Source of the DNA: Desulfobacterales bacterium
GTDB taxonomy: Bacteria > Desulfobacterota > Desulfobacteria > Desulfobacterales > UBA5852
Assembly (NCBI GenBank): GCA_049366795.1
Contig: JBMNCP010000026.1
Location: forward strand, 18,608 to 82,607
Length of the DNA stretch: 64,000 nucleotides
Direction of reading: 5' to 3'
Made by a program: the position numbers and the translations under genes. Of this stretch, positions 16,721 to 55,173 are shown in pieces. Position 1 is the stretch's first letter, and the number at the start of each line of letters is the position of its first letter. Below the pieces are notes generated by a model that was given only the letters and a program-made list of their open reading frames with translations, did no database searches and was not told the origin of the DNA.

Positions 16721-17080
16721 TCAAGCCTCACCGATCGTTTCCCTGACGATACGGATCACTTCCTCGGGTTTGAAAGGCTTGTGGAGATAGCCCACGGCGC
16801 CTCTGATCGACAGGTGCTTGGAGGGCATGGCGCTGATGATCAGAACGGGGGTGTCCTTCAGGATGTCGTCCTTTTTGAATTTCCTGAAAAACCGGGTTCC
16901 CCACTCCTTCGGCATTTCCAGGTCCAGGGTCACCATGTCCGGCCGCTCATCCCGCATCACCTCCAGTGCGTAAAACCCGTCCGTGGCCGAACAGACGTCG
17001 TAGCCGTTGTCCCGGAAGAGCAGACTCAGGAAGTTCACGACTGCCGGGTCGTCCTCGACGATCAGGATTTTCTTTCCCAT
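16721..17080 (-). CDS. single-domain response regulator (CheY-like receiver)
   Basis: 119 aa. ILIVEDD...VTLDLEMP...VLIISA...YLHKPF shows all receiver key residues. A GAGGAGG RBS precedes it. Confidence 0.9.
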   Translation of the reverse strand: MGKKILIVEDDPAVVNFLSLLFRDNGYDVCSATDGFYALEVMRDERPDMVTLDLEMPKEWGTRFFRKFKKDDILKDTPVLIISAMPSKHLSIRGAVGYLHKPFKPEEVIRIVRETIGEA

Positions 17081-18669: not shown

Positions 18670-18765
18670 CGCCTTCTCCGGTTGAAGTTCCACTGGGTCG
18701 CCCCTGAAAGCCGTCGAGATCCGACGGCCGGTCCGCACCGCGGATCACATGGCTTCCCAAAGCCG

Positions 18766-20286: not shown

Positions 20287-20347
20287 CGGCAAACCTCCCG
20301 AACCGCCGGTGGGATGAAGAGCGGTTCCACCGCACGGTGGAAGGGCC

Positions 20348-22069
20348 TCACGACACGTCGATGCCGTAGCGCTTCATTTTGCGCCACAGCGTCGACCGAT
20401 CCATGTTCAGGGCCTGGGCCGCCTGGCCTTTGTTCCACCGCATCCGGTTCAATGCGTCCAGGATCCGCTCTCTTTCCTCCCGGCTTTCCTCTTCCGGTAC
20501 AGGTGCGCAAATGTGGTGCGGCACCTTTCGCGTTTTGTTCCCGAGCAGGGTAGGCGGGAGATGCCGCTTCTCGATCACCTCCGACTGGCACAGGATCATT
20601 GCGTGCTCGATGATGTTCTCCATCTCCCTCACGTTGCCGGGGTAGTCGTGGTTCAGCAGGATCTCCATGACCTCAGCCGAAATCCGGCAGGGTCGGGTCC
20701 CTCTGGCCACGTTGAGCCTTTTGAGGATGTGCCCGACCAGCAGGGGGATGTCGCACCGGCGCTCCCTGAGCGGAGGCAGGTAGAGCCGCATGAGATTCAG
20801 ACGATAAAAAAGATCTTCCCGGAAGGTTTTGGCCTCGACCATGTCCATCAGGTTCTGGTTGGTGGCCGATATGATTCGGACATCCACCTGGGTGGTCTGA
20901 CGGCTCCCGAGCGGATAGAATTCCTTGTCTTCGATCACCCGCAGCAGCTTGGCCTGCAAGGGAAGGGGCAGGTCACCGATCTCGTCGAGGAAGAGGGTCC
21001 CTCGGTGCGCCATCTGGAAGCGGCCGGGCTTGTCACGGTCGGCGCCGGTAAATGCGCCCCTGACGTAGCCGAACATCTCCGACTCCAAAAGATTGCCCGG
21101 GATGGAGGCGCAGTTGACCTTGACCATTTTATGGTGCGACCGGGTGCTGGCATTGTGAATGATTTTCGCCAGAAGGTCCTTGCCCGTGCCGGTGGGCCCT
21201 TCGATCAGCACGGTGGCATCGCTGGCGGCGATGACCGGTGCGGCCTCGAAGATCCGCTGCATGTCGGGATGCTTGCTGACCATGTCGCAGAAGGTGTACT
21301 GCTCTTTGACGACCCGGTCGAGCTGATACTGGAGCGACAGGTCGGAAAGGGTCGTCATGCCGCCGACCACGGTACCGTCCTCGTTTCGGATGGGAAAGTA
21401 CTTCGCCCGTATGGGGATGTGATTCCCGGACTTGTCGACGATTTCGGTTTTCAGGCACTCCCTGTCTCCCTCAGTGGCGATCGCCCCTCCTCTCAAATCC
21501 TCGCAGAAGGACTTGCCAAAAACCGTTCCGCAGTTTCGGCCCAGCAGCTCGGTCCGGGAATAGCCCGTGATCGTTTCGGCCATCCGGTTGAAGAAGGCGA
21601 TATGCCCGTTGAGATCCACCGTGAACACGGCATGGTCCAGGCTGTCCAGAATATGCTTCAGCTTGAGGCCTTCGAAACGGATGCGCTGCATGAGTTCATG
21701 GAGGACCGTCTTGTCCTGGAAGACTTCGACGCAGCCGACAATACGGCCGTCCGCTCCGTAGAGAGGGCACTCGATCTTGGTGATGCTGCAGAGGCGATTG
21801 TCCTGGTCGGTGATCCGGATCTGGGATACGACGGTTTCGCGTTCGGCGTCCGGAGAGTCCAGGTACTTGCATCGTCCGCCGCAGAGATAATCCAGGAAGA
21901 TATCGTAGCAGAACCGGCCCAGGACATCGGCCTCCCTGGCGCCGGTCAGCTTTTCGGCGACGGCGTTCATGGCCATGATCTTCCGATGTTCGGACAGGAC
22001 GATCACGCCCAGGGCGAGCCGCTCGAAGATTCCCGAAATCTGATCGTATCGGATCAACGCATCCGTCAT
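20348..22069 (-). CDS. dual-PAS sigma54-dependent transcriptional activator (no receiver)
   Basis: Start at [10 protein letters not shown], overlapping the kinase stop as ATGA. It has two PAS-like regions, then [15 protein letters not shown]...GAFTGA and a C-terminal HTH ([18 protein letters not shown]). Confidence 0.9.
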
Positions 22070-24354
22070 GGCATCGGCTCCAGCGCCCGGAACCGAAGGA
22101 CGAAACAGGCGCCTCCGGACCGGCCGGGTAGTGCGTGGATGGTTCCCCCGCAATCCTTGATGATACCGTAGCTGATCGACAGTCCTAAACCGGTTCCCTT
22201 GCCGACCTCCTTGGTGGTAAAGAACGGTTCGAAGATTTTCTCCCGCAACGCCTCCGGGATCCCCGGCCCGCTGTCCTCGACCTCGACGACAACCGCCCCG
22301 TTTTTCCGACGGGAACGGAGATCGATCCATTTTTCAGCGGCATTCCCCGGAGCCTGGCCGAGCCCCCCTGCCTGAGCGTACTCCTCGATGGCATCCCTGG
22401 CGTTGATCAGAAGATTGATGAACACCTGCTCCATCCGGCTGCCGTCGGCAAGGATATCCGGAAGTTCCGGATCGAGATCACAGCGGACTTCGATGCCGCG
22501 GACCTTGAGCTGCTGGCTGAAAATTTCGAGTGCCCTGTGGAGCACCTCGTTGAGATTGATTCGCTCCTTGTCCGGACTGGACTTTCGTCCGAACTCCCGC
22601 ATGTGGTTGATGATCCGGGTGGCTCGACGGATGTGGCTGTCCGTCTGCTCGGCCAGCTTGCGAAGAATCCCCTCCTCGATGGGCTCGCCGTTTTCCAGTT
22701 TTTTCAGGAAAAAGCCGCTGGCCATCTTGATCACCGACAGGGGCTGGTTGAGTTCATGGGCGACGCCGGTGGCCATTTCACCCAGCGTGGCCATCTTGCT
22801 GGCGTGAATGAGCTGCTGCTCGACCTCGAGCCGCTTGGTGATATCGCTGGTGGTCACGAGGAGAACCCGTCGGCCTTCGGATTCAGACGGGGAGATCCGA
22901 ATATTGACGGTCAGCGTGCGGCCATCCTTGGCCACATGCCTTTCCTGATTCAGCTCGACCGAGTTGCGCAGCTTGAATGCAATCCGCTCGGCAGGTTTTT
23001 CATAGAAGAAGTCGAGGAATGATGTTTGAATTATATCATGTTTTTCGTATCCGTAAACCGCGGTGACGCTGTCGTTGCAATCGACGATTTCGAGCGTCTC
23101 CGCATCCAGCACGAAAATCGGGTTGGGAATGTTGTCGAAGATGGCCTGGTATTTTTTCTCGAACTGCCGGAGGCGTGTCTCCAGGGACTTGAGTTGGGTG
23201 AGATCCAGGTTCATCTCCATGGCCGCCACGATGCGGCCTTCGGCGTCCTTCATGGGTGAAGCAACCGCCAGCCAGTGAAGGGTGTTGCCATCCTGGTCGA
23301 TGCCCGTCTCTTCGCCGAACTGTGGGGCACCTTCCTGGAATGTCCTTTCGACCAGGCAGTTTTCGCACTTCTCGCTTCTTCCCTTGTAGGCGTGATAGCA
23401 ATAGTCGCCCTTCATGGGGTGGAACTTCTCGGCGAAGCGCCGGTTGTAGTTGAGCAGCCGGAAATCCCGGTCCTGCAGGGTGATCTCGCAGGGGACCATT
23501 TCGAAGAGGGTCTGGTATTCTTCCTTCTGGCGGCGCAGCTCCGCCTGGCTCGTCGCGATTTCCAGCCCCATCCGGTTGAACGCTATGGCCAGCTGACCGA
23601 TCTCGTCCTCGCTCCGGATGGGCACGCCGGTGCTGTAATCGCCCCTGGCCAGCCGCCGCGTTTCTCCGATCAGCCGTCGGATCGGCCGGTTGACGAATCG
23701 CAGCATGAGAACGACGATGGTGGTGGACGCGATCAGGAACATCACCAGCGCCAGGGTAATGATGCCTCTCTTGAGCACCAGAATTTCCCGGTCCGTGTTC
23801 CTGAGGGACAGGATCACATCCAGCGCGCCCAGGACCTTCTTGTCGGATGGATGCACGTGGCATACATCGGTGGCGCAGCCTGCCTGGTTCCAGATGGGCG
23901 TGATGATGCCCATGTGGCGGTCGCCTTGCGTGTCGGAAAAGATTCGCGTCCGTTTCTCGGATGCCAACTCTGAAACCGGCGGATCGAATCTGTGGCAGAC
24001 ATCGCAGGCCTCGGCCTTGATGTTCGTCGTTCGGTTGACCTCCTCGATGCGGTTGGTAAACTTTATTTCTCCGGCCTTGTTGTAGATCCGGATGGTTTCG
24101 ATCTCCTGCTGCCGGGCGATATTGTTGATGATCTCGTTGATGTCGTCCCGGGAGTTGTGCATCATGGCGAAGTGGGTGCCGAGCCGGATGGTTCTCCCCA
24201 GCCGCACCGCCTCGCCCAGCTTGTGCTCCATGAGATTTTGCTTCTGATACTCGATATTGAAGTATGCCCACACCCCGATGGTGACCATCAGGGTCAGTCC
24301 GACCCCCACGATGAGCTTCGAAACCAGGCTGTGCCGCATCAAGCGGGCTGGCAT
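22066..24354 (-). CDS. membrane sensor histidine kinase with periplasmic domain carrying haem-c type motifs, HAMP, two PAS
   Basis: 762 aa. TM1 (aa ~12-32) and TM2 (~198-218) flank a loop containing CDVCH and CATDVCH. It continues with HAMP, PAS, the H-box [11 protein letters not shown] and the ATPase motifs NARDA...DSGPGI...GTGLGLS. Confidence 0.9.
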
Positions 24355-24508: not shown

Positions 24509-25807
24509 TCAGAGCCCGACCTCCGCCAGGTCCGGCCCCAGGTATTCCCGCTCGTTTTCTCCCAGGATGCCCAGGGACAGGCAGATCAGCGTCCACAGGT
24601 GCACCGTGTGGTAAGGGGCCTCGAAGTGCTCGGCCAGATCGTGGATCTGCGAGTGGCAGTTGTGGCATGCCGCGATGCAGTAGGATGCCTCGGTGTCCAG
24701 GATCTGGCGCAGCTTTAGCTTCCCATATTCCCGCCTGGCGTCCACGTACCCCGACTGCAGGAATCCCCCCCCGCCGCCGCAGCAGTAGTTGTTCGAGCGG
24801 TTGGGGTACATCTCGACGAAATTCTCCTCGCCCACGACGGACTTGACAACGAACCTCAGGTCTTCCGCGATGGGATCGCCGTAGCTTTTCCGTACGATCT
24901 GGCAGGGATCCTGAACGGTGAACTTGATCTTCAGATCCTTGTTCCAGTCGGAATTCACCTTGAGCTTCCCCTCGCGGATCCACCTGGCGTAGTATTCGTA
25001 AATGTTGACGACGTCGAAATCGTGCTCGATACCGAATTTTTTCAGTCCGGCCCGGACTGCGTAAGTGACGTGCCCTCACTCGGTATTGAGATAGACCTTG
25101 CACCCCAGGTCATGGCATTGTTTCGCCGACAATTCGACCACGTGACGCCAGCTGTCATCGTCGGCCAGGAACATGCAGTAGTTTTCCCCGCCCCAGCCTT
25201 TGCTCCCGTATGTCCAGTCCGCCTTGACCTGTTGGAGGATCTTCCACAGGGGCACCATCTCGTCGGGTTCCGTGACGGGCTCCCGGGAGTTCTGGTTCAG
25301 GAAGAACCGGGCGCCCTTCTTGTCGATCGGCGCCTCCAGGGTTTCGAAACCCGGCTGGTTTTCCCGGACTTCCGCGAGGACGTCCTCCACCACGAACTGA
25401 AAATCCTCGGGAGAGGCGCCCATGGCGCTGCAGCTGTCGTTTCTGAGCGCCATGTCGCAGGACTCGCGGATGCCCTTCGGCCGCTCCTCCCGTGGCCAAC
25501 TGGCGCGCACCTCGTAGACGAGGGCGGGGATGTCGATCTGCATGGGGCAGACATAGACGCACCGCTGGCAGAGACTGCACATCCAGACCCACGGGGTGGC
25601 GCGAATCTCCTCCTCCAGACCGAGTGCGGCCATCCGCAGGAACTTTCGTGGATCCATGCCTTCGAGCCCCGTGGCCGGGCACCCCGAGGCGCAGGCGCCG
25701 CAGGTGAGACACAGATCGAGGTTTCCTCCGTCGGGCAGGAGGTCCCTCACCTTGGCCATCAGCGGGCTTTGCCGTTCCGCGCCGAGCTGAATCGCCGCTT
25801 CGCCCAT
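24509..25807 (-). CDS. hdrD: HdrD/DsrK-like Fe-S + CCG-domain heterodisulfide-reductase-family protein, predicted selenoprotein (UGA at 25076-25078 read as Sec)
   Basis: Track ORFs 25076-25864 and 24509-24958 are in the same frame, separated only by one TGA. Read-through gives ...KVYLNTE-U-GHVTYAVRAGLKKFGIEHDF...NSDWNKDL.... The N-terminal part has 2x[4Fe-4S] (CLTCGACASGCP, CSLCQRCVYVCP) and the C-terminal part has CCGGGGG...CHNCHSQ. I chose the start at MGEAAIQ because of an AAGGAG RBS. Confidence 0.75.
25043..25059 (-). other. candidate bacterial SECIS hairpin downstream of the hdrD UGA
   Basis: On the mRNA, UGA is followed by 16 nt and then CAGUCC-GGGCC-GGACUG, a 6-7 bp GC-rich stem with a G-rich apical loop. 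Confidence 0.5.
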
Positions 25808-25856
25808 GACACGCTCCTTTCGTCGGTTGTTCAAAGCCGGAGTCGGGCCCTTCGGA

Positions 25857-26738
25857 TTATGCACCGGCCGCCGACCTGATCTTTTGCTGAAAACCCGGAG
25901 TGACGGCCAGGTTCAGCGGTAAACCCAGTTCGGAATGGGAAAGACCGATGGCCATCCCCAACAGCTGGGGGAGATAAAGAATGGTGATTCCCAGGTCTTC
26001 ACCGTAGCGGGATGCGACCTTGTCCTGGTAGGCTTCCAGGTTCATCTGGCACATCGGACAGACCGTCACCACGGCGTCGGCTCCCCGGGCGGCCTTGAGG
26101 ATCCGGTAAACGCGCTCCAGGGCGACGGGCATCTTGGTGTTCATGTGCGATGCCCCACAGCATTTCGCCCCCTCGGACCAGGGGTGGACGGTGGCCCCTG
26201 TGGCTTCGATCAGGGGCTCCATCGACGTCGGAGATTCGGGGTGATCGAAAACCGCGTAGGGTCGCAGGCACTGGCAGCCATAGTAGGGTGCGATGGCGAG
26301 TCCGGAAAGTTCATGGTCGAGCCGCTGCCGGATGGCGTCGGCGCCGACATCCCGGGCCAGCACGTCGAGCAGATGCCGAGGTCTGGATTTCCCCTGGAGG
26401 TGTAGACCGGTCTCGGCCAGCAGGACGTTGACGCCTTCGAGCCGTTTCGGATTTCCGTAGACTTCCATTTCGACCCGTTTCAGGTTGAGGTAGCAGGCGC
26501 TGCAGGGCACCAGGACCTCCGGGTCGTCCGCCATGGTTTCGGCGATGGCGAGGTTCACGGCCGGCAGCGCATCGGTCAGCCGGTTGCTGACAGCCGATGC
26601 CGCACTGGCGCCGCAGCAGGTCCAATCCGTCAGTTCGGTGAGCTGCACGCCCATCCCGGCAAGGAAAGCCTTGGTGGACTGGTTGTACTCTCTCGCGGTG
26701 CCCGTCAGGGAGCAGCCCGGATAGTAGAGATAGTTCAT
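25857..26738 (-). CDS. hdrB: heterodisulfide reductase subunit B-like (two CCG domains)
   Basis: 293 aa from MNYLYYPGCSL, with ...TCCGAS...PCSACY... and ...YGCQC...KCCGAS...CPMCQMN. A GGAGG RBS precedes it. ATGA overlap with hdrC. Confidence 0.9.
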   Translation of the reverse strand: MNYLYYPGCSLTGTAREYNQSTKAFLAGMGVQLTELTDWTCCGASAASAVSNRLTDALPAVNLAIAETMADDPEVLVPCSACYLNLKRVEMEVYGNPKRLEGVNVLLAETGLHLQGKSRPRHLLDVLARDVGADAIRQRLDHELSGLAIAPYYGCQCLRPYAVFDHPESPTSMEPLIEATGATVHPWSEGAKCCGASHMNTKMPVALERVYRILKAARGADAVVTVCPMCQMNLEAYQDKVASRYGEDLGITILYLPQLLGMAIGLSHSELGLPLNLAVTPGFQQKIRSAAGA

Positions 26739-27331
26739 TGCCGCGCCTCCATGGTTTCGGCTTTTCGGAACATGGCTTCCAGGGATCTGTGGCCGCCCCC
26801 GCCCTCCCGCCTGTGGGGACCGAGCTTTCCCTTGCGCATCAGGCGCATGCCCATCGGAGTATACTTCAGTGGCAGCAAGGGTTTCCGGAGCATCTGGGAC
26901 CTGAAATACGCCGAGATGAACCCCATCTCGTTCACCCGCCCGTGGCGGCGGATGCTGTCCATGAAGCATCGGTAGAATGCGGTGCCTTCCTGATGCTCCG
27001 GCATGCCTTCCCGCGCCGCGATCTGCTTGAGCCTGGACATGGCGTCGGTCAGGGGCAGCCCCCGCGGGCATCGCAAGGTGCAGGTGTAGCAGGCGGAGCA
27101 CAGCATGAAGGTATGGCTGCGGAAGATGGCCTCGGTGTCGCCCATGAGGACGAGCCGCCACATGTGGCGCGGGGTCAGATCCATTGCGAATGCGTTGGGG
27201 CATGAGGCTGTACAGGTACCGCACTGCATGCAGGCGTTGACATTCTCCCGTATCGCCGTCAGGTCATCCGCGACGCGGGTCCCTGCAGGCGGAGACCCGC
27301 TGTTCGTCGTATGCGTCTCAGGGGATTTCAT
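26735..27331 (-). CDS. hdrC: heterodisulfide reductase subunit C-like (2x[4Fe-4S])
   Basis: 198 aa with CMQCGTCTASCP and CSACYTCTLRCP. An AAGGAGAA RBS precedes it. Confidence 0.9.
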   Translation of the reverse strand: MKSPETHTTNSGSPPAGTRVADDLTAIRENVNACMQCGTCTASCPNAFAMDLTPRHMWRLVLMGDTEAIFRSHTFMLCSACYTCTLRCPRGLPLTDAMSRLKQIAAREGMPEHQEGTAFYRCFMDSIRRHGRVNEMGFISAYFRSQMLRKPLLPLKYTPMGMRLMRKGKLGPHRREGGGGHRSLEAMFRKAETMEARQ

Positions 27332-27379
27332 GGGTTCTCCTTTCGGGATGCGCGCAAACCGGCCGGTCCGTGAAGGGCA

Positions 27380-30300
27380 TCAGCAGGCAAGAGCCGCATC
27401 GATGGTCTCCAGCATCTGTCCCGCCGGGTAGCCGTCGAGATAGGCCGCGCCGTTGGGACACACGGAGGCGCAGGCGCCGCAGCCCTGGCACATGGCGGTG
27501 TTGACCAGGATCTGCTCGTTTTCCGGATCTATGGTGCGCGCCTCGTAGGGGCACGCCTCGATGCAGCGCTCGCACAGCGCGCACAGGCTGGTGTGCACGC
27601 CGGCAACGATTCGGTCCGCGTACAAGCGGTCGCGGCAGAGAATTCGCAGACCCCGCTGCGCGGCCGCCTCGGCCGATGCGATGGATTCGGCGATCGTCCT
27701 GGGTGAAAGCGACAGTCCGCAGGCAAATACACCCTCCTTGAGGGCGTCCACCGGACGCCACTTGAATTCCGCGGCCTCGAAAAACCCGTCCCGGTCCAGG
27801 GTGGCGCCGAAGCTCTCGGCCAGGGACCGGGGCAGCTCCGGGATGACGCCGGTCGCCAGCACCACCAGATCGGCGGCGATCTCCACGTCGCGCCCCAGAA
27901 TCGGTTCGAATCCACCGACCTTGACACCGTCGCCGTCAGGCGCGACCCGCGGCTTCCGGTCGACCGTGTAGGGGATGAAGGTCACCCGGTCTTTTCTCGC
28001 CTGTGTAAAACAGGATTCAGTGAACCCATAGCTCATCATGTCCCGGTAGAAGACATAGATCGCCACCTCCGGTTTGAGTTCTCTGAGCCTCCGGATGTGC
28101 TTGAGCGTCGTCTGGCAGCAGACGCGGCTGCAATAGTTGCGGGGCTCCTCCCGGGAATCGACGCACTGGATCATGACCACGTTTCGGAGCCGCCCGCCCT
28201 CGACCTGGTTTTCATTCAGACGGCGTTCCAGCTCGCTCTGGGTGACGATCTCCGGGCTGGCGCCATATCCGTAAGAGGTGGTGGGAGCTTCCCGTCCTCC
28301 GGTCGCCAGAATGGCGACCCCGTGCTCCACCACCCGGGCGGCGCCCTGGCTGTCTTCCAGCGTCGTATGGAACCGGCCCACCTGCCCCATGGAGGTGATG
28401 ACCCGGGTCCCGGTGTTCACCTCGATGCCCGGATGCCCCTCGACCCGCGAGCGGATCTCCTCGAGCAACGGGGCAGTGGGGCGGCCTTCGAGGGTCTGCC
28501 CGATCCACAGCAGATTGCCGCCCAAGGCATCCCCGGCTTCCACCAGCTCCACCGGGTAGCCGTGATCGGCAATCGCCAGCGCCGCATGCATGCCCGCGAT
28601 TCCGCCTCCGATCACCATCGCGCGCTGGGCCACGGGGATGGCGGCCTTCGGCAGGGTCTCCACCCGCTTCAGTCTCGCGGCGGCCATCAGCAGTTCACCG
28701 GTGGCGGCGAAGGCTGCCCTCGCCGGATCTACCGCCTCCGTCGCCGCCTCGCGGGTCAGCGTCGGGGTGCGGATGTCCACGACCTCCATCAGGCGGGGAT
28801 CCAGTTGGACCTCCTTGCCGAGCGCCTTGAGTTTTCGGGCATAGACATAAGGCAGGCAGGCGCCGATCAGCAGTCGGTTCGGGTGATGTCGTTTCACTGC
28901 CTCCGTGAGCTGCCCCCAGCCTTCCGAAGTACAGAGACGCGGAAGGGTCTGCACCCGCGTGACCGCAGGATCCTGCCGCAGTCTCGCCTCCAGAACCTTC
29001 AGGTCCAGGGCGGCGGGAATCGCCCCGTCACAGCTGCAGAGAACCGCCAGCATCCGGGGGGACTCCCGGGAGACGTCCTCATAAAACGGCGTTGCCGTCG
29101 GCGTCTCCGGAACGAGGCTCCCGCCGCTGCCGTGGATCACGCGGGAAGCCTCAGCCGCCGCCGCTCCCGCCTGAATCACCGACTCGCTGATATCCTTGAG
29201 GCCTGAAAAGGCCCCGGCGACCACCACGCCCTCCCGGGCGGTGCGGGTCATCGAAAACGGCTCGGTCTCCGGGAAGCCCCAGGGATTCAGGCCGATGCCC
29301 ACCAGTTCGGCCAGTTCGGCCGATCCCGCCGCAGGCCGCTGCCCGACGGACAGCACGATCATGTCGTAATTCTCGTCCCGTGCGGCGCTGTCGTACCCTG
29401 AGAACCTGACCTGCAACTCTCCCGTCCTGCGGTCGGGAATGACGGAGTGGATCCGTCCCCGCTCCAACCGCACGCCGTCGGCTTCGGCCTCCTGCCGGTA
29501 ACGCTCGAAGGGTTTGCCGAAGGTCCGCATGTCCATGTAGTAGATGACCGTTTCGATCGGCTCCCCCGCCTTCCGGGCGCGCTCGCGGGCGATTCTGGCC
29601 TCCTTCAGTGCGAACATGCAGCAGATGCTCGAACAGAAATCCGCTCCGGACTGGAGATCGCGCGAACCCACGCACTGCACCCAGGCGATGCGCCGCGCCG
29701 GCCGCCCGTCCGAGGGCCGCTGCAACCGACCGGCAAAAGGCCCGGTGCCGCTGAGAATGCGTTCGAATTCGAGGCTGGTAACCACATCCGGAAACACCCC
29801 GTACCCGAAGGGGTTCTTGCCTTCGGACGGGTTGAAATAGTCGGTTCCTCCGGCCATCACGATGGCGCCGACTTCCAGATGCGGACCCTCCGGCGTCTTG
29901 AGCGATTCGAAAATCTGAACGATCTTTGGAATCAGCACATCGGGGTCGAAGGGCTTGATCAGATAATCCACGGCGCCGAGCTTCATGGCCTCGACGGCGG
30001 TCTCCACCGTGGCGTAGGCGGTAATCATCACCACCGGCAGTTCCGGAAAGAGGTCCTTCGCCTTTTCGAGCACCTCGACGCCGTCCATCTCCGCCATCTT
30101 GATGTCCAGGAGCATCAGGTCGATGGTGCCGGTCTTGAGCGTTTCGATCGCCTCCGGACCGGATGCCGCCATCGAGACGGAAAAGCCGCCCTCCACCGAC
30201 AGCCATTCCTTGAGGGAATCGCGGACGATCAGTTCGTCGTCGACGACGAGAATACGGAATCCCTGGCGATCGCCGTCCTCTAAACGGATGGCATCGGTCG

Positions 30301-30826
30301 GGCAGACTTTCGCACACTCCCCGCACCGGGTGCAGACGGTCGTGTCGATCCGGTAAGGATTGGGAATCGCGTGGGGAACCGGCAGATAGACGGCCTTCCG
30401 GGTCTCGAGCCCCTCGTTGAAATCGTTCGACACCTCCACCGGGCAGACCTCCACGCATCGACCGCAGCCGATGCACAGGGCCGGGTCGACAGGGTTGGGC
30501 TTCTGCTTCAAAGTGACCTGGTAGTGACCGGGCTCGCCCTCCACCGATGCCAGATCAGTGGAAAGGAGAATGTCGATGTTGTCGTGAAACAGCCCTTTTC
30601 TCAGACAGAACTGGGAGCTGCTGTCCCGGTCGACCAGGGGCAGCATTTTGCACATGCCGCAGCGGTCGGTCGGAAACTGATAGTCGAGTTGGCTGAGCAC
30701 GCCGCCCAGGTGGGGGCGGCGGTCGATCAGGGTCACCCCGTAACCGAACTCCGCAAGATCGAGGCTGGCACGAATACCGCTGATGCCCCCTCCGACCACG
30801 AGTGCCTTGCCGATCTTTCGTTGCAT
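27380..30826 (-). CDS. fused QmoA-like + HdrA-like flavo-iron-sulfur protein with an inserted CheY-type receiver domain
   Basis: 1148-aa uninterrupted ORF.
- Module 1: VVGGGISG, CIGCGRCVEVCP/CTRCGECAKVCP, ...CSSICCMFA.
- REC insert, aa ~190-306 (nt 29909-30259): FRILVVDDE...IDLMLLDIKMAEMDG...VVMITAY...YLIKPFD.
- Module 2 from aa ~590: AVLCSCDG, VIGGGIAG, CSRVCCQT, and C-terminal CALCERCIEACP/CQGCGACASVCP. Confidence 0.9.
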   Translation of the reverse strand: MQRKIGKALVVGGGISGIRASLDLAEFGYGVTLIDRRPHLGGVLSQLDYQFPTDRCGMCKMLPLVDRDSSSQFCLRKGLFHDNIDILLSTDLASVEGEPGHYQVTLKQKPNPVDPALCIGCGRCVEVCPVEVSNDFNEGLETRKAVYLPVPHAIPNPYRIDTTVCTRCGECAKVCPTDAIRLEDGDRQGFRILVVDDELIVRDSLKEWLSVEGGFSVSMAASGPEAIETLKTGTIDLMLLDIKMAEMDGVEVLEKAKDLFPELPVVMITAYATVETAVEAMKLGAVDYLIKPFDPDVLIPKIVQIFESLKTPEGPHLEVGAIVMAGGTDYFNPSEGKNPFGYGVFPDVVTSLEFERILSGTGPFAGRLQRPSDGRPARRIAWVQCVGSRDLQSGADFCSSICCMFALKEARIARERARKAGEPIETVIYYMDMRTFGKPFERYRQEAEADGVRLERGRIHSVIPDRRTGELQVRFSGYDSAARDENYDMIVLSVGQRPAAGSAELAELVGIGLNPWGFPETEPFSMTRTAREGVVVAGAFSGLKDISESVIQAGAAAAEASRVIHGSGGSLVPETPTATPFYEDVSRESPRMLAVLCSCDGAIPAALDLKVLEARLRQDPAVTRVQTLPRLCTSEGWGQLTEAVKRHHPNRLLIGACLPYVYARKLKALGKEVQLDPRLMEVVDIRTPTLTREAATEAVDPARAAFAATGELLMAAARLKRVETLPKAAIPVAQRAMVIGGGIAGMHAALAIADHGYPVELVEAGDALGGNLLWIGQTLEGRPTAPLLEEIRSRVEGHPGIEVNTGTRVITSMGQVGRFHTTLEDSQGAARVVEHGVAILATGGREAPTTSYGYGASPEIVTQSELERRLNENQVEGGRLRNVVMIQCVDSREEPRNYCSRVCCQTTLKHIRRLRELKPEVAIYVFYRDMMSYGFTESCFTQARKDRVTFIPYTVDRKPRVAPDGDGVKVGGFEPILGRDVEIAADLVVLATGVIPELPRSLAESFGATLDRDGFFEAAEFKWRPVDALKEGVFACGLSLSPRTIAESIASAEAAAQRGLRILCRDRLYADRIVAGVHTSLCALCERCIEACPYEARTIDPENEQILVNTAMCQGCGACASVCPNGAAYLDGYPAGQMLETIDAALAC

Positions 30827-30881
30827 GACGGCCCATCCTTTTTATGTTGCCGGCACCGCTCCGGGAGAGCGGCGCAATGGG

Positions 30882-32024
30882 TTAGTGGATGCCGACGACC
30901 TCCTGGAACTCCGCCTCGCGAAACGCCGAAAGCGGCGGGGCCTCGGCCGGATCCCGGCCGGCGAGGACATCGAAGGCCCCCTGCGTGTCGTGGGCGATCG
31001 TGCGGAACACCTCCATCACCGGGATGTCGTTCGGGCAGGCGTTGGTGCACTGGCCGCAGCCGACGCAGGCCGTGCTCATATGAGCCAGCCGGGTGAGATG
31101 GTAGAACACGGTATCCGTCGGCAGCTTGATCGCGCCCTTGCGGCGGGCCCAAGCCATGTACTGGGCGGGCTCGTGGTTGAAGACATCGGTGAGAAAGACG
31201 CATTCCTTGCAGTAGCAAACCGGGCAGGCCACCCGGCAGTTGTAACAGTTGACGCAGCCGGCGAAGTAGGTCGTCAGTTTTTCCAGGCTGTCGGTGGCGT
31301 TTCGGGTCGCCTCGAACATCCGGTCCCTTGCGGACGCCCTCTCCGTGACCAGCGATTCCACGGCGGCTTTACGCTTCACGGAAACAGGCGTTTCCGGGTA
31401 GGCAAGCCGTCCCAGGATCTCCTCGCCCTTGGGGCTGCGTCCTTCCAAAAGGATTTCGCGGTCCACATCCACCCCGATCAGCCCGATCGACAGGTCGGCC
31501 CACTCGGGCACCGGGTGTTCACAGACCTGGCATGCGGAGGCCAGGTCGACGCCGTCCATGGCCGCCCCCTTGCCCGACAGCACCTGAGCGGCGAACCGGC
31601 GGGTCGTTTCGGCCGCATCCTCACCCACGAACCGCAGATAGTCTTTGTTCTGGTAAGCCCCGAGGCAGTCCACCCCGATGACCAGCAGTTCGTCCAACCT
31701 GGCCTGCTTGAGCTTCACCAGCTCCACCAGCGCTCGAATTTCGCAAGGCCGCAGCACCACCGCCACCCGACCCCCGAAAGGCTTGCGGGATAGCTTCGAA
31801 ACGACCTTGGCCGTATTCATGGGGAACGCCGGGGCCAGCGGGTCGGCGCCTTCCAGGTCCTTCGGATCGCTGATCAGGGTCGGCATGACCATGGCCTTCA
31901 TGGGAAGCCGTCTCGGCACGAGAAGCGCGCTGACGTCCTCCATGCCCAGCAAATCGTTGAAAAACCCCTTGAGACTTGCCAGCAGATCCCCTTCCTTGAC
32001 GTCGAGTTTTACCTTGGTCGCCAT
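30882..32024 (-). CDS. FrhB/FdhB-family (F420-hydrogenase/dehydrogenase beta-like) flavo-Fe-S protein
   Basis: Start at MATKVKLDV (GGAGCGG RBS). It has CVNCYNCRVACPVCYC and CVGCGQCTNACP plus an FrhB-like N-terminal region. The family assignment is from memory. Confidence 0.65.
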   Translation of the reverse strand: MATKVKLDVKEGDLLASLKGFFNDLLGMEDVSALLVPRRLPMKAMVMPTLISDPKDLEGADPLAPAFPMNTAKVVSKLSRKPFGGRVAVVLRPCEIRALVELVKLKQARLDELLVIGVDCLGAYQNKDYLRFVGEDAAETTRRFAAQVLSGKGAAMDGVDLASACQVCEHPVPEWADLSIGLIGVDVDREILLEGRSPKGEEILGRLAYPETPVSVKRKAAVESLVTERASARDRMFEATRNATDSLEKLTTYFAGCVNCYNCRVACPVCYCKECVFLTDVFNHEPAQYMAWARRKGAIKLPTDTVFYHLTRLAHMSTACVGCGQCTNACPNDIPVMEVFRTIAHDTQGAFDVLAGRDPAEAPPLSAFREAEFQEVVGIH

Positions 32025-32098
32025 GTTTCCGCTCCATTTCGCGTGTTGTCCCGGCACCGGCGGGCCCTGGATCGGGACCGCCTCCCGGCGCCCAAATT

Positions 32099-32521
32099 TC
32101 AGATAACCATCCTCATCTTTGCCTGGCTCGGACCGAGGGATCTGATCTGCTCCACGAGGGATTGAATGGTCTTCGCGAATTCAATCCCGTCGCTCGCCCC
32201 GATCCAGGTCAGCCGCAGCCGCTCCGGCTCGAAGCCGAACTGTGGGAGGATTTCCTTGAGCAGCTTGATCCGCCGCCGCGCCTTGTAGTTGCCGTTGATG
32301 TAATGGCAGTCGCCGGGGTGGCAGCCGCTGACCAGAACTCCGTCCACCCCTTCCAGAAAGGCCTTGATGATGTACTGGGGATCGACCATGCCGGTGCACA
32401 TCACCCGAATGAGCCGGACATTTTTCGGATAGCTCAGCCGGGAAGTGCCGGCCAGGTCGGCCGCCGTGTAGGTACACCAGTTGCAGACAAAGGCGACGAG
32501 AGTCGGTTCGAAATTTTCCAT
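32099..32521 (-). CDS. mvhD: MvhD (methyl-viologen-reducing hydrogenase delta subunit) family protein
   Basis: 140 aa. LVAFVCNWCTYTAADLAG...IRVMCTG...VSGCHPGDCHY is the canonical MvhD pattern. A GGAGGAG RBS precedes it. Confidence 0.9.
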   Translation of the reverse strand: MENFEPTLVAFVCNWCTYTAADLAGTSRLSYPKNVRLIRVMCTGMVDPQYIIKAFLEGVDGVLVSGCHPGDCHYINGNYKARRRIKLLKEILPQFGFEPERLRLTWIGASDGIEFAKTIQSLVEQIRSLGPSQAKMRMVI

Positions 32522-32551
32522 TTTTTGGCTCCTCCATCAGAATGCAATCGG

Positions 32552-35500
32552 CTAGACCCCGACCTGGGCCAGGGCGTCCATCAGTCCGTCAAATTCCGCC
32601 ATCACCTGCTTGGGCTTGAAATGGTCGATCTGCGCCGCGTCGCTGGGGCAGAATCCGGCGCAGCTGCCGCACCCCTTGCACACTGCCTGGTTCACCACCG
32701 AGACGTTGCGACGCTCGTCGAATTCGATGGCGCTGTAAGGGCACAGACCAATGCAGGTCTGGCATCCCGAACAGACATCCGGGTCGATCCAGGAGATCAC
32801 CGAAGGAACGGCGACCCTTTTCCGGACCGCCAGGGAAAGGGCCTTGGCGGCCGCCCCGGAGGCCTGGGAGACGGTGTCCGGAATGTCCTTCGGGCTCTGG
32901 CAGGCGCCGGCGAGAAAAACGCCGTCGGTCGCGGTGTTGAGAGGGCCGAGCTTGGGATGCTCCTCCAGGAAGAACCCGTCCGCCCCGATGTTCACCCCGA
33001 AGATCCGGCCGACCTCGACCGCGTCCTCCCGGGCCTGCATGGCGACGCAGAGCACCGCCATGTCCACGGGAACCCGGATGGCACGGCCGAGCAGCGTGTC
33101 CTCCGCCAGGCAGACGAGCTTGCCCTCCTCCTCCGGGAACCGCGCCTCGTCGGTGATTTCCGCCACCTTGCCCCGGATGAAGGTCGTCCCCTCCTCCTGG
33201 CATCGGCGGTAGAACTCCTCGTAACCCTCTCCGAAGCAGCGCATGTCGATGTAAAAATCGTAGACCGGCGTGTCGTGGCCGACCTTCTCCTTGATGAGGT
33301 GGGAGTACTTGAGGGCGTACATGCAGCAGACCCGGGAGCAGTATTGGTGATAGTTCACGTCCCGGCTCCCGATGCAGTGGAGCAGCGCCACGCTCCTGGG
33401 AGGCCGCGTGAAGGCGCCGTCGCCGTCCCGCATCAGGATCTGTCCGCCGGTGGGCCCGGTGGCGTTGCTCAGCCGCTCGAATTCGAGACTGGTGAACACA
33501 TTGGGATATCTGCCGTATCCGTAGGGCGCCATCGAGGTGGGGTCGAGCACGTCATAGCCTGTGGCCAGGATGATGCTGCCGACCTTGACCTCGACTTCCT
33601 CGGCCTGCATCGAATGGTCGATGGCTTTCGCCTCGCAGGCCTTGACGCACTCCATGCATTCGCAGCAGACCCCGCAGTTCAGGCATCGTTCCGCTTCGCT
33701 CAGCGCCTGCTCCGCGGTGAGCCCCTTCGATTCCTCCTCGAAGGAGCCGACCCGCAGGCTCCAGTCCAAGTGGGTGAGGTGCTCCCGCTTCCGGGGCGCG
33801 CATTCCACAGGGATATCGGCCCACTGGCAGGCGTCTTCCACCGCCTCGGCCGGCTCGGCGATCGGGGCTTCCTTCCGGGGTCCAGATGCCGCTGCATCAG
33901 ACGCCACGCCCGTCTCCAGGAACGCGATGATCCCCTCCGCCGCGCGATGCGCCGCGGCCACGGCTTCCACCACGGTGGCCGGACCGCTCACCGCGTCGCC
34001 CGCGGCGAAAACATGGGGGATCGTCGTCTGCAGGGTGACCGGGTCCGCAACGATCAGGTTCCTGCGGCTGCACTCCAGACGACAGGCATCGTCCACCCAT
34101 GACAAGTCCACCCGCTGACCGATGGCGGGGATGACGGCGTCGCAGTCGACCACGAATTCGGAACCAGCAATCGGCTCGGGCCGCCGGCGGCCGCTTTCAT
34201 CCGGCGCCCCCAGGCGGGTTTCGATACACCGGAGGCCGGTGACGCACCCGTTCTCGGAAAGAATTTCGAGCGGCGCCGCCATGAAGCGGAATTGGACGCC
34301 TTCCTCCCGGGCGCCCTGGATCTCATCGCCAAAGGCAGGCATCTCCGCCTCCGACCGTCGGTAGACCACCGTCACGGATTCCGCTCCGAGACGCCGGGCC
34401 ACCCGAACGGCGTCGATCGCCACGTTGCCGCCGCCGACTACGGCGACGCGGCGCCCCGGACACTCCCGCCCGGCGAGATTGCAGTCCCGCAGGAAGCAGA
34501 TGGCGTCCAGGACCCCCTTCGTTCCGGTCTCGCCCGGGATGCCGAGCCGGGTGCACTCGTGGGCTCCGACCCCCACAAACACGGCGGAAAATCCCTCTTT
34601 TTCGAGATCCGCCAACGTCATGTCTGTGCCGAACCGGACTCCGGTCCGGACATCCACGCCGGTCCGGAGAATGTAGTTGATCTCCCTGTCCAGCACCTCC
34701 GGGGGCAGCCGGTAGTCAGGGATGCCGACCCGCAGCATGCCCCCGAGCTGGTCGAGCGCCTCGAAAAGCGTCACCTGGAAGCCGGCTTTCCGAAGGTCGA
34801 AGGCGGCCGTCAAACCGGCCGGTCCGGAGCCGATCACCGCCACCCTCTCCTCCCGCTCCTCCTTTATTTCCGGCAGGGGAAGCGATTCGAAGTCCACCTG
34901 ATCGGCCGCATACCGCTTCAGGTCGCGGATGGCGATCGCTTCGTCGACTTCCTGACGCCGGCACTCGGTCTCGCAGGGATGAGGGCACACGCGGCCCAGC
35001 ACGCCCGGCAGCGGAATCTTCTCCATGATCAGCCGGACCGCCTCTTCGTACTTGCCCACCTTGATGAGCTGGACGTAGCCCTGAACGTTGACGTGGGCCG
35101 GGCACGCCTGCACGCAGGGAGCCCGATCCTTCTTGTCGATGCAGTAGGTAATGGGAACGGCCTGGGGAAAGGCGCGGTAGATCGCATTCCGGGTGCCCAT
35201 CCCGACGTCCCATTCACTCGGAACCGTCACAGGGCAGGCCTTGGCGCACTCGCCGCAGCCGGTGCAGTTCGCCAGCACGTAGCGGGGGTTTTTCCGGATT
35301 CGCACCGTGTAGTTGCCGATATATCCGGACACCTCCTGGACTTCGCTGTAGGACAGCAGATCGATGTTCGGGTTCTGGGCCACGTCCACCATCTTGGGGG
35401 TGCCGATGCAGGCCGCGCAGTCCAGGGTGGGAAAGGTCTTGTCGAACTGAAGCATGTGCCCGCCGATCGTAGTGGACTTCTCCACCAGATAGGTCTTGTG

Positions 35501-35992
35501 TCCGCTATTGCCGATATCCAGGGCCGCCTGCATGCCCGCGATGCCGCCTCCGACCACCATGATGTCCGGATGGACCTCGACTTCCCGTGCATCGAGGCTC
35601 CGGTGGTAGTTCACACGATTGACGGCGGCGGCGGCCAGGGTCTTGGCCTTCCGGGTGGCTTCGTCCTCGTCCAGAGTGACCCAGGACACCTGCTCGCGAA
35701 CGGAAGCCATCTGGAATAGATAGGGATTGATCCCGGCTCTCTGGCAGGCCCCCTGGAAGGTCTTTTCATGAAGCCGCGGGGAGCAGGAGGCGACCACCAC
35801 GCGGTTGAGACCGTAGGAGGCGATATCCTTTTCGATCATCTCCTGGCCGGGGTCGGAGCACATGAACTTGTAGTCTCGCGAAACCACGACATTGGGAAGA
35901 TGCCGGACAAACTCCGCCACCTCCTCGACCCTGACCTTGTACGCGATGTTGATGCCACAGTGGCAAATGTAGAACCCGATCTTTTTCTCCAT
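32552..35992 (-). CDS. hdrL: large HdrA paralogue (HdrL-type): HdrA fused with a GltD/NfnB-like NAD(P)H-binding module
   Basis: 1146 aa.
- IGFYICHCGINIAYKV (HdrA N-terminal domain), VVGGGIAGM, FPTLDCAAC.
- An inserted CPAHVNVQGY...VAVIGSGPAGLTAA...GGMLRVGIPDYRLP...VVGGGNVAIDAVR, which is the small-subunit glutamate-synthase-like fold.
- It then resumes CSRVCCMYA and ends with 2x[4Fe-4S]. Confidence 0.85.
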   Translation of the reverse strand: MEKKIGFYICHCGINIAYKVRVEEVAEFVRHLPNVVVSRDYKFMCSDPGQEMIEKDIASYGLNRVVVASCSPRLHEKTFQGACQRAGINPYLFQMASVREQVSWVTLDEDEATRKAKTLAAAAVNRVNYHRSLDAREVEVHPDIMVVGGGIAGMQAALDIGNSGHKTYLVEKSTTIGGHMLQFDKTFPTLDCAACIGTPKMVDVAQNPNIDLLSYSEVQEVSGYIGNYTVRIRKNPRYVLANCTGCGECAKACPVTVPSEWDVGMGTRNAIYRAFPQAVPITYCIDKKDRAPCVQACPAHVNVQGYVQLIKVGKYEEAVRLIMEKIPLPGVLGRVCPHPCETECRRQEVDEAIAIRDLKRYAADQVDFESLPLPEIKEEREERVAVIGSGPAGLTAAFDLRKAGFQVTLFEALDQLGGMLRVGIPDYRLPPEVLDREINYILRTGVDVRTGVRFGTDMTLADLEKEGFSAVFVGVGAHECTRLGIPGETGTKGVLDAICFLRDCNLAGRECPGRRVAVVGGGNVAIDAVRVARRLGAESVTVVYRRSEAEMPAFGDEIQGAREEGVQFRFMAAPLEILSENGCVTGLRCIETRLGAPDESGRRRPEPIAGSEFVVDCDAVIPAIGQRVDLSWVDDACRLECSRRNLIVADPVTLQTTIPHVFAAGDAVSGPATVVEAVAAAHRAAEGIIAFLETGVASDAAASGPRKEAPIAEPAEAVEDACQWADIPVECAPRKREHLTHLDWSLRVGSFEEESKGLTAEQALSEAERCLNCGVCCECMECVKACEAKAIDHSMQAEEVEVKVGSIILATGYDVLDPTSMAPYGYGRYPNVFTSLEFERLSNATGPTGGQILMRDGDGAFTRPPRSVALLHCIGSRDVNYHQYCSRVCCMYALKYSHLIKEKVGHDTPVYDFYIDMRCFGEGYEEFYRRCQEEGTTFIRGKVAEITDEARFPEEEGKLVCLAEDTLLGRAIRVPVDMAVLCVAMQAREDAVEVGRIFGVNIGADGFFLEEHPKLGPLNTATDGVFLAGACQSPKDIPDTVSQASGAAAKALSLAVRKRVAVPSVISWIDPDVCSGCQTCIGLCPYSAIEFDERRNVSVVNQAVCKGCGSCAGFCPSDAAQIDHFKPKQVMAEFDGLMDALAQVGV

Positions 35993-36041
35993 GGCTGACT
36001 CCCTGCGGGCGGTTGGTCCGTTCGGGAAATCCGCCCCGTGG

Positions 36042-36467
36042 TCAACGACCCGGGGCCGATTCCGGCCTACTGGTTAGCTTCTCGACGGCAAGGATGAGCG
36101 CTTCGGCGTCCGGTGGATTCGCTAGAAACGCCTCCGGTTCGGGAATCGTCTGATCCGCCTGGGCGGTGCTCAAAACGCCGGACCGAAGGATGGTGTCTCT
36201 GCGAATGCTCGAGATCATGATGACCGGGACCTTCCGAAATGCCTGGTCCGTTTTGAGCGCCCTGTAAAAACAAATCCCATCCTCACCGCACATCATGCAA
36301 TTGAGAATGACGCACAATGGAGGCGACTTCCGGACCTCGCGGAGACCTTCCTCCATGCTCCCGGCGGTTACCGGCTCCAATCCATGACTTCGAATCAGGC
36401 TGCCGATATAGGTGACCGAGTCGCTGTCGTCGTCGACGATCAGAATCTTTCCCGGGCAAGCCGTCAT
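36042..36467 (-). CDS. degenerate (pseudo-)receiver domain protein, first gene of the hdrL operon
   Basis: 141 aa. KILIVDDDSD has the receiver fold, but the phospho-acceptor position reads VILNCMMCGEDG (Asn instead of Asp). The conserved Lys position reads FLANPPD (Asn instead of Lys). A GGAGG RBS precedes it. Confidence 0.75.
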   Translation of the reverse strand: MTACPGKILIVDDDSDSVTYIGSLIRSHGLEPVTAGSMEEGLREVRKSPPLCVILNCMMCGEDGICFYRALKTDQAFRKVPVIMISSIRRDTILRSGVLSTAQADQTIPEPEAFLANPPDAEALILAVEKLTSRPESAPGR

Positions 36468-36643: not shown

Positions 36644-36658
36644 ACAAGATTTGTGCCA
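36644..36658 (-). promoter_or_regulatory. weak candidate sigma54 promoter upstream of the hdrL operon
   Basis: The minus strand reads TGGCACAAATCTTGT. The -24 element is perfect, but the -12 reads GT instead of GC. It lies in an unusually AT-rich intergenic island about 175 nt upstream of the first gene. Confidence 0.3.
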
Positions 36659-47906: not shown

Positions 47907-48092
47907 GATGGATTCCCGGATATTTCCCCTTGACAGCGGTGGCGGCCGGGGATAACCGAACGGTTCGGACATTTGATGGCCGGATGTCCACGGAGCACTA
48001 TCGAAAAGCCATTGCGCTGTAAAGTTCAAACCCTCATTGCAGCCTCCTGCCATCAGCCGGACCTTCTTTACCCTCAACCGCGGCCAAGCCCA

Positions 48093-52595: not shown

Positions 52596-52764
52596 CCGGA
52601 TCACGGCCCGCCTGCCGGCGGGACCCGGACAGCCGGAGGGTCGATTCCGGCGCCATCCCCGATGCCCGGGTCCGGACCATGGGATGGCAGTGGCGGGTTC
52701 ATTTCGGGTACCCCGCTCGCGGAAATTTGAGGCCGCCTGTCGTGCAGGCGGAGTCGCAACACAG

Positions 52765-52800
52765 AAACGGCATCCGTTATATTGGGATGCCGTTTCATTT
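52765..52800. terminator. bidirectional terminator hairpin between convergent ggt and pfp
   Basis: AAACGGCATCC-gttatattg-GGATGCCGTTT, with U-rich sequence following on both strands. Confidence 0.7.
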
Positions 52801-52843
52801 CGCTCCGCGTCCGCCGGTGCGGCAGCAATGCATTCCGCCCCTG

Positions 52844-54949: not shown

Positions 54950-55173
54950 GGATTTCCCCCGCTGTGGTTGAGGGCCGCCCGCCGGAATCCCCCCTGACGG
55001 GGGTGGGGCTGCCGCGAAAGATGGGCGAAAGGCACGCGAAGTCGAATTGAAAATATCATACCTGAGAGAGGCGGTTCAACGTCTTTCCGCATCCCGCGGC
55101 GATCTCCGCGAAAACGGGTTTGCCATTTCGGTATTCTGTGCTAAATAGCGTTTATTTTTTAGGGGATGCCATC

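Follow-up and report, generated by a model that had tools for sequence, protein, structure and literature searches.

The eight co-directional genes on the minus strand between positions 24509 and 36467 of a 64,000-nucleotide stretch of Desulfobacterales DNA (assembly GCA_049366795.1; the whole stretch is called the window below) form one operon of the "HdrL/HdrABC" type, and the order of these genes is conserved far beyond chance in other genomes. The invariant core of the cluster consists of HdrL, an MvhD-type connector, an FdhB-like protein, and a tandem HdrA, accompanied by interchangeable output subunits of the CCG type. With a probability of about 0.6, we read the operon as encoding a single soluble multi-flavin iron-sulfur (Fe-S) complex that would be linked to NAD(P)H and ferredoxin and would act on a disulfide or trisulfide; a soluble multi-flavin complex also is the proposal in the literature for this cluster type (PMC2702500, PMC5947623; these and the other papers are cited here from excerpts). 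The cluster type is already in print (2009, 2018), and the locus is a further example of it rather than a new system. Its least-described feature, and the one most worth following, is a receiver domain built into the HdrA flavoprotein, together with a conserved kinase.

The window is part of contig C26 of a 4.79-Mb draft genome (97% complete). It is GC-rich (about 60%), and all eight minus-strand open reading frames (ORFs) of the cluster have a high third-position GC. A preliminary description of this DNA had listed a contiguous eight-gene Hdr cluster here with no hydrogenase or formate dehydrogenase partner in the window, and on both counts it stands. All the genes were found with the boundaries it gave, in agreement with the Pfam and NCBIfam assignments (Table 1), while the genome's 6 matches to the NiFe-hydrogenase family PF00374 and its 13 matches to the molybdopterin family PF00384 all lie outside the window, the nearest of the latter ca. 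4 kb before its start. In gene order the gaps measure 49, 30, 74 (41 with the GTG start), 55, and 48 nt, followed by a 4-nt overlap of the hdrB start with the hdrC stop (ATGA), and by a last gap of 49 nt. Of 7 terminator-like sites found (9.3 expected in shuffles), none lies on the coding strand in an intergenic gap. It is from the short gaps, the one overlap, the lack of an intergenic terminator-like site, and the conserved collinearity that we conclude that the eight genes form one operon.

Conservation and variability of the cluster

Forty relatives were searched with the FdhB-like gene. Full-length matches (38-65% identity) occur in 19 of them, across many families of the order, and the 19 loci were fetched. 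mvhD accompanies the FdhB-like gene in all 19, hdrL does so in 18, and 16 have in addition the tandem hdrA in the same order; the recurrent arrangement is receiver-HdrL-MvhD-FdhB-like-tandem HdrA-HdrC-HdrB(-HdrD). There are two variants: in one, HdrD stands between the FdhB-like protein and the tandem HdrA; in the other, hdrCB comes first and the tandem HdrA lacks the receiver. When species-representative genomes were scanned with the same marker, at least 597 candidate stretches emerged, at least 560 of them confirmed. The best 80 belong mostly to metagenome-assembled genomes (MAGs) of Desulfobacterales, together with Desulfonema magnum, a Desulfonema limicola MAG, a Desulfatiglandales MAG, and a Syntrophobacteraceae MAG (L072) whose FdhB-like gene is 61% identical. 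Of the uncharacterised redox modules in sulfate-reducing and syntrophic Desulfobacterota, this cluster type is one of the most widespread.

Gene order was counted in the 29 of these 80 fetched loci that have full 10-kb flanks, leaving out the other 51; to be scored, a gene had to show at least 40% identity (28% in the case of the leader receiver) and to cover 60% of the query, thresholds at which divergent copies are missed. MvhD is present in all 29 loci and adjacent to the FdhB-like gene in every one, followed in frequency by the tandem HdrA (27), HdrL (24), the leader receiver (20), HdrC and HdrB (18), the downstream kinase (18), and HdrD (10). In 24 of the 29 the four core genes are collinear, and the exact gene order of the window recurs in 3. 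The CCG units are variable: HdrCB occurs together with HdrD in 7 loci and alone in 11, and HdrD alone in 3.

Table 1. Coordinates of the cluster, its inserted modules, and the adjoining kinase in the window
Feature	Position	Strand	Assignment
Degenerate receiver (leader gene)	36042-36467	minus	PF00072, 47 bits
HdrL, 1146 aa	32552-35992	minus	HdrA-type N-terminal domain, FAD site, and ferredoxin domains; Fer4_20 and Pyr_redox_2 at residues 290-681
NfnB/GltD-type insert of HdrL, about residues 285-765	33698-35140	minus	PF14691 and PF07992
MvhD-type [2Fe-2S] connector	32099-32521	minus	PF02662, 185.6 bits
FdhB/ElpB/FrhB-family Fe-S (probably FAD) protein	30882-32024 (ORF to GTG at 32057)	minus	PF04432, 40 bits
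Tandem HdrA, 1148 aa	27380-30826	minus	Two HdrA modules and receiver, by Pfam
CheY-type receiver inside tandem HdrA	29879-30262	minus	PF00072, 101.7 bits, residues 192-301
HdrC-like, two [4Fe-4S] motifs	26735-27331	minus	Fer4_8 and Fer4_17
HdrB-like, two complete CCG motifs	25857-26738	minus	PF02754, two stretches
HdrD-like (DsrK/HmcF/TmcB-like)	24509-25807	minus	Pfam, read with TGA as Cys; in-frame TGA at 25076-25078
Hairpin resembling a selenocysteine insertion sequence (SECIS)	25043-25059	minus	17 nt after the UGA; comparative fold
Membrane HAMP-PAS histidine kinase (ninth gene, outside 24509-36467)	22066-24354	minus	Pfam

Subunits and proposed electron path

On the input side, HdrL scores 780 and 590 bits against the HdrA2 and HdrA models, under both cut-offs, and carries ferredoxin motifs at residues 243, 776, 1074, and 1105 and GxGxxG motifs at residues 148, 388, and 520. 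The NAD(P)H-type, GltD-like insert reported for it in the preliminary description was borne out. Two [4Fe-4S] sites and FAD are present in the insert, its NAD(P)H Rossmann fold contains the motif VVYRRS, two Rossmann motifs are retained, and NCBIfam model NF009410 is passed (533.6 bits, cut-off 516). The closest solved structures are the NADPH/FAD subunits of NfnABC and NfnAB (E 1e-115 to 1e-82), namely NfnA of NfnABC (9bov_A, 1.3e-115), NfnB (4ylf_B, 2.6e-87), and then 5jca_L; they rank ahead of glutamate synthase small subunits, and GltD (2vdc_G) follows. The YRR of the motif may be a 2'-phosphate (NADPH) marker. Judged by this kinship, the insert is a bifurcating NfnB-type NAD(P)H module. 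HdrL orthologues are 56-79% identical in 17 of the relatives' loci, and two further loci hold distant or partial copies (53-63%).

The MvhD adaptor and its FrhB/FdhB-like partner likewise are as first described. MvhD is 77-89% identical in relatives and 61-66% identical in the receiver-less variant loci (L017/L018). The FdhB-like protein has two ferredoxin motifs besides the FrhB_FdhB_C domain, and among solved structures it is best matched by FdhB/ElpB chains from Hdr complexes (9t1s_M, 1.2e-29; 7bkb_E, 3.5e-28; 8rvu_E, 6e-27), the alignment with 8rvu_E spanning residues 22-376 and thus nearly the full length. Fifteen Cys are invariant across 11 orthologues. There are 3945 homologues at E<=1e-60, and since the 120 best are almost all 379-386 aa long (two outliers have 391 and 411 aa), the true start probably is the ATG at 32024. 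In methanogen complexes ElpB and ElpC(MvhD) make up the donor arm that feeds the bifurcating FAD of HdrA (PMC12350162), and by analogy the MvhD and FdhB-like proteins of our cluster look like such an arm. F420 was considered as carrier for the FdhB-like protein and rejected, as the biosynthesis genes all fall short of their cut-offs in this 97%-complete genome (CofH-like, 307 and 244 bits against 374; CofD, 30 against 257; CofE, no match). On this gene content the FdhB-like subunit cannot use F420 in this host, and its flavin site, if kept, would therefore serve another partner or only relay electrons.

The output side holds two different CCG catalytic units, HdrBC and HdrD, as had been proposed. 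The HdrC-like protein (ferredoxin motifs at residues 34 and 78) reaches 75.5 bits against TIGR03290 (cut-off 160), and the HdrB-like protein, with the Cys of its two motifs at 9, 41, 42, 79, and 82 and at 155/157, 193, 194, 227, and 230, reaches 156.7 bits against TIGR03288 (cut-off 345). In the HdrD-like protein two [4Fe-4S] motifs are joined by a single complete CCG motif and by a degenerate, CCG-like first half that bears the selenocysteine; by our reading of the spacing, the UGA stands at the second Cys of a CCG motif. Its best NCBIfam models are HmcF (157 bits), TmcB (146), and DsrK (115), all scored far under their cut-offs. The TGA occupies the same codon in 10 of 11 homologues, the eleventh being a 27%-identical paralogue with TGC. 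The seven-pair stem of the SECIS-like hairpin is kept in 9 of 9 orthologues, with compensatory changes at two pairs; the comparative fold carries the weight here, the single-sequence fold not being significant (z -1.68). With a conserved in-frame UGA, a downstream hairpin, and a tRNA-Sec gene in the genome (C15:34419-34510), the HdrD-like gene has the marks of a bacterial selenoprotein gene. Another HdrD-type fusion is encoded on the plus strand at 47973-50954, where an ORF of 993 aa joins an FAD-linked oxidase (GlcD/LdhD-like), a ferredoxin domain, and two CCG domains.

Between the two sides stands the tandem HdrA, in which an N-module lacking the N-terminal domain of HdrA is joined in one chain to a C-module that has this domain. 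Its best solved relatives are HdrA chains (9sfi_A, 8e-121; 5odc_A, 3e-113), and 3404 homologues were found at E<=1e-20. The AlphaFold2 model (predicted local distance difference test score, pLDDT, 81.5; predicted template modelling score, pTM, 0.80) finds its best fold matches in HdrA of 5odc, 8rvu/8rvy, and 7bkb, so that, as modelled, the protein has the HdrA fold. The receiver is a clean insertion of 128 residues (189-316) relative to a receiver-less paralogue; it is located in the N-module directly behind the ferredoxin domain, at the same topological site that the NAD(P)H module occupies in HdrL. Going by the usual CheY pattern, it has the full set of residues of a phosphorylatable receiver (acidic pair, phospho-acceptor Asp, Thr/Ser, and Lys), and 10 of 10 orthologues retain this DD, D, T, and K set. 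Of 61 tandem HdrA orthologues, 60 have a receiver segment, and the 120 best database homologues all carry PF00072. In the open literature searched we found no published description of a receiver insert in HdrA.

In the electron path that we propose, NAD(P)H would be oxidised at the NfnB-type module of HdrL, and electrons would travel over the Fe-S clusters and the HdrA-type FAD of HdrL to the [2Fe-2S] cluster of MvhD and on to the FdhB/ElpB-like Fe-S/FAD protein. The tandem HdrA would receive them as a covalently linked HdrA pseudo-dimer, at which flavin-based bifurcation or confurcation with ferredoxin may occur; as the coupled output, a disulfide or trisulfide would be reduced at the noncubane clusters of HdrB and/or at the selenocysteine HdrD-like subunit. 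Such a soluble, NAD(P)H-linked multi-flavin complex, put forward already in the preliminary description, fits the domains, the solved relatives, and the published proposals. The host is a sulfate reducer (aprBA-qmoABC on contig C45, one dsrC in the genome), and DsrC, the acceptor most frequently proposed in the literature, is plausible but unsupported in this role.

Several observations weigh against a single complex with this output. No dsrC was found in the window or in any of 99 related loci, and the Hdr subunits all score under the curated NCBIfam cut-offs for CoB-CoM Hdr, DsrK, HmcF, and TmcB. Neither HdrCB nor HdrD was detected in 8 of the 29 full-flank loci (an upper bound at the thresholds used), and as both are variable (HdrCB in 18/29, HdrD in 10/29), the core is not tied to a thiol/disulfide output. 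The cluster is missing from two genomes of the same genus (one of them 96% complete) and from one other genus of the family (G001, G002, G003), and is therefore dispensable; since a sister genus has it and the same-genus genomes lack it, it seems to be gained or lost as a unit within the family. In syntrophic cultures of Syntrophobacter fumaroxidans only FAD/NAD-binding subunits were detected (PMC5947623), which would allow for sub-complexes. In the open literature searched, we found no biochemical or structural study of this bacterial cluster.

Some of these observations would also suit two separate, co-regulated enzymes: an NAD(P)H:ferredoxin (Nfn-like) oxidoreductase made of HdrL, MvhD, and the FdhB-like protein, and a ferredoxin:disulfide reductase made of the tandem HdrA and HdrCB(/HdrD). 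HdrCB and HdrD come and go while the core stays (HdrCB in 11, HdrD in 3, both in 7, neither in 8; n=29), the nearest relatives of the HdrL insert are the bifurcating NfnA/NfnB subunits, which by themselves work with ferredoxin, and the restricted set of subunits in the syntrophic cultures (PMC5947623) points the same way. Set against this, MvhD and FdhB/ElpB are connectors that dock on HdrA in the solved complexes (PMC12350162), and the core genes of both supposed enzymes are collinear in 24 of the 29 loci, with one MvhD and one FdhB-like gene to serve three HdrA modules. On balance we regard the division into two enzymes as rather unlikely. Flavin-based bifurcating enzymes are reversible, and the cluster might also run in an oxidative, sHdr-like direction, oxidising a protein-bound thiol or persulfide and reducing NAD(P)+ and/or ferredoxin (e.g. 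in sulfur disproportionation or reverse electron flow). An HdrL-like HdrA of Desulfurivibrio dismutans was indeed proposed in 2025 to take electrons from DsrC trisulfide during sulfur disproportionation (PMC12142623), and the sHdrA-like structure 6tjr of Hyphomicrobium is among both the fold and the sequence matches. However, the cluster has no gene for a lipoate-binding protein and no sHdr-type accessory gene, the genome with its aprBA-qmoABC and dsrC is that of a typical sulfate reducer, and the S. fumaroxidans proteins are sulfate-specific (PMC5947623), all of which makes this direction quite improbable.

Receivers, kinase, and paralogous loci

The receiver encoded by the leader gene differs from that of the tandem HdrA. 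Its PF00072 match covers only profile positions 1-81 of 111, and a pairwise alignment of the two places Asn at the phospho-acceptor Asp and Asn at the conserved Lys; it thus lacks what a phosphorylatable receiver of the CheY type has. The sister genus also has N at the acceptor position, and seven more distant orthologues keep D. At the other end of the cluster, 154 nt downstream of hdrD, begins the membrane histidine kinase, which carries CxxCH and Cx4CH motifs ahead of its transmembrane helix and, going by these motifs, is a candidate periplasmic haem redox sensor. A matching kinase gene (52-62% identity) directly follows the cluster in 11 of the 19 relatives' loci. Further signalling genes lie nearby: a sigma-54 activator, two receiver-kinase hybrids, and a lone receiver at 16721-22330, which in relatives are also found near the cluster with their positions shuffled. 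In the sister genus a receiver-PAS-kinase is located upstream of the leader gene.

With an intact receiver inside HdrA, another encoded by the leader gene, and a conserved kinase, the complex may also be under phosphotransfer control. One could go further and picture the tandem HdrA as an asymmetric pseudo-dimer whose electron flow is switched post-translationally, the periplasm-facing dihaem kinase phosphorylating the receiver and so opening or closing the low-potential (ferredoxin) branch, or choosing between HdrBC and the selenocysteine HdrD; we offer this as a speculative and doubtful extension. If true, it would be a case of direct two-component control of a flavin-based bifurcating enzyme itself, not of its transcription.

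As to the origin of the cluster, the preliminary description had suggested a duplication of the upstream TusA-MvhD-HdrA'-HdrA-HdrC-HdrB locus followed by a gain of accessory genes. Alignments and phylogeny of the two loci do not uphold this: they are not each other's nearest paralogues. The nearest paralogue in the genome, as judged from the sequences, is a locus linked to methylene-tetrahydrofolate reductase (C79:262865-270732; L100) with hdrC, hdrB, a receiver-less tandem HdrA of 1013 aa, a selenocysteine mvhD, metV, metF, and an FrhB-family gene. Identities between our cluster and the C79 locus amount to 36-37% for the tandem HdrA, 44% for MvhD, 35% for HdrB, and 31% for HdrC, as against 36-38% and 28% for the HdrA modules, 25% for MvhD, and 33% over 79 residues for HdrC in the comparison with the TusA locus. 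The HdrB-like protein of the TusA locus (9162-10094, minus strand) has a single CCG motif instead of two and no BLAST match to our HdrB at E 1e-3. MvhD of the C79 locus (C79:265608-266012; L100:5582-6013, minus strand) has an in-frame TGA where our MvhD has Cys and probably is a selenocysteine MvhD, a form reported from other Desulfobacterales as well.

In a maximum-likelihood tree of 39 HdrA modules, rooted on outgroups that are this genome's own paralogues only, both halves of our tandem HdrA are sister to the C79 halves (SH-aLRT support 99), and the TusA-locus proteins branch one node further out. The relatives are represented in it by 10 of their 19 loci. Excluded were loci in which genes are truncated, frameshifted, or missing, and five more that are complete but nearly duplicate others (L003, L005, L006, and L008 of the sister genus, and others). 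A clade of our modules with those of the TusA locus was rejected by the approximately unbiased (AU) test for the C-module (p 0.011) and not rejected for the N-module (p 0.085). Descent from the TusA locus can call on that N-module result, on the module order common to both loci (MvhD, short HdrA, long HdrA, HdrC, HdrB), on the resemblance between the short HdrA encoded there and the N-part of our tandem protein (the 36-38% given above), and on the position of the TusA-locus proteins as next outgroup. Yet the topology (TusA,(Met,focal)) obtained for both modules, the C-module test, and the MvhD and HdrB comparisons all favour the hdrC-hdrB-tandem hdrA-mvhD-metV-metF locus on C79, and we consider a TusA origin very improbable indeed. 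An old short-plus-long HdrA pair is common to the three loci.

Elsewhere in the window, the large ORFs code for signalling proteins, Fe-S assembly-type proteins, the FAD-oxidase/CCG protein, SMC, and FtsY. One of 1327 aa on the plus strand (51014-54997) has no Pfam match at E 1e-5 and, at 0.58, a third-position GC below that of its neighbours. Three compost runs labelled transcriptomic and one soil metagenome run listed as DNA yielded only short contigs of low depth and were rated as probably DNA. A candidate sigma-54 promoter upstream of the leader gene (36644-36658, single mismatch) was discarded: such matches number 44 in the window against 57 expected, and a comparable site stands upstream of only 1 of 17 orthologous leader genes.

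Comparison with known systems

Within the genome, the C79 locus, which we take to be a Moorella-type MetFV-HdrCBA-MvhD module (methylene-tetrahydrofolate reductase of the Wood-Ljungdahl pathway), resembles our cluster in the tandem architecture of HdrA and in having an FrhB-family gene alongside; our cluster differs in lacking metF and metV and in adding HdrL, the receiver insert, the leader receiver, HdrD, and the kinase. With NfnAB/NfnABC (9BOV, 4YLF, 5JCA) it shares, over ca. 400 aligned residues of the HdrL insert, the subunit that binds NADPH, FAD, and two [4Fe-4S] clusters. Unlike in these enzymes, the module is inserted in an HdrA fold and is not a separate subunit, and the cluster has no NfnA-type small-subunit partner.

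The methanogen Fdh-Hdr-Fmd and Elp-Hdr complexes (7BKB, 8RVU/8RVY) have in common with it an arm of FdhB/ElpB and MvhD onto the FAD of HdrA, and HdrBC with noncubane clusters (PMC12350162); the sequence matches range from E 1e-27 to 1e-29 for FdhB/ElpB and from about 1e-89 to 1e-121 for the HdrA chains. In contrast to them, our cluster has no FdhA/ElpA partner, its genome yielded no F420 biosynthesis genes, its tandem HdrA bears a receiver insert, and there is an additional HdrL with an NAD(P)H module. The CoB-CoM HdrABC share two complete CCG motifs in HdrB and the HdrA fold (5odc, 7bkb, 8rvu), but their models are far from being reached (HdrA, 513-780 bits against cut-offs of 1100-1400; HdrB, 157 against 345; HdrC, 75 against 160).

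The published clusters that the locus matches, judged on gene content and order, are locus VIII of Desulfobacterium autotrophicum HRM2 and Sfum_0819-0824 of S. fumaroxidans; as the HdrL/HdrABC type has it, hdrL with its NAD(P)H insert is followed by mvhD and the fdhB-like gene, and these by hdrA-hdrC-hdrB. Locus VIII, with the order hdrL-mvhD-fdhB-hdrA4-hdrC-hdrB-hdrD2, is like ours a tandem hdrL/hdrA locus with mvhD and an fdhB-type gene, then hdrA4-hdrC-hdrB, and then hdrD2; an NADH input was proposed for it, and HdrL was defined as a fusion of Hdr and glutamate synthase with an NADH site (Strittmatter et al. 2009, PMC2702500). The same paper reports selenocysteine forms of HdrD and MvhD in that genome and, in the legend of its figure 4, names a 'CheY-like regulator' and a histidine kinase among neighbouring genes, with the locus not specified; in the excerpts at hand it does not mention a receiver inside HdrA4. 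Sfum_0819-0824, termed 'HdrABC/HdrL', likewise has hdrABC beside genes for HdrL, MvhD, and a Fe-S protein of the FdhB kind, and a catalytic subunit of hydrogenase or formate dehydrogenase is absent there too; it is described as a set of six genes, and neither a leader receiver nor HdrD nor a kinase is mentioned in the excerpts of the paper (Sedano-Nunez et al. 2018, PMC5947623). For that cluster there are expression data at the protein level, the complete set having been detected only with sulfate, and confurcation with reduction of DsrC was proposed (PMC5947623), whereas ours is known from its genes alone. To these descriptions the present locus adds that an invariant core can be defined, that F420 is excluded for the FdhB-like protein in this host, that the HdrL insert is of the NfnB type, that the nearest Hdr paralogue is the Met-linked one, and that receiver and kinase travel along with the cluster; each of these points offers a handle for purification and assay.

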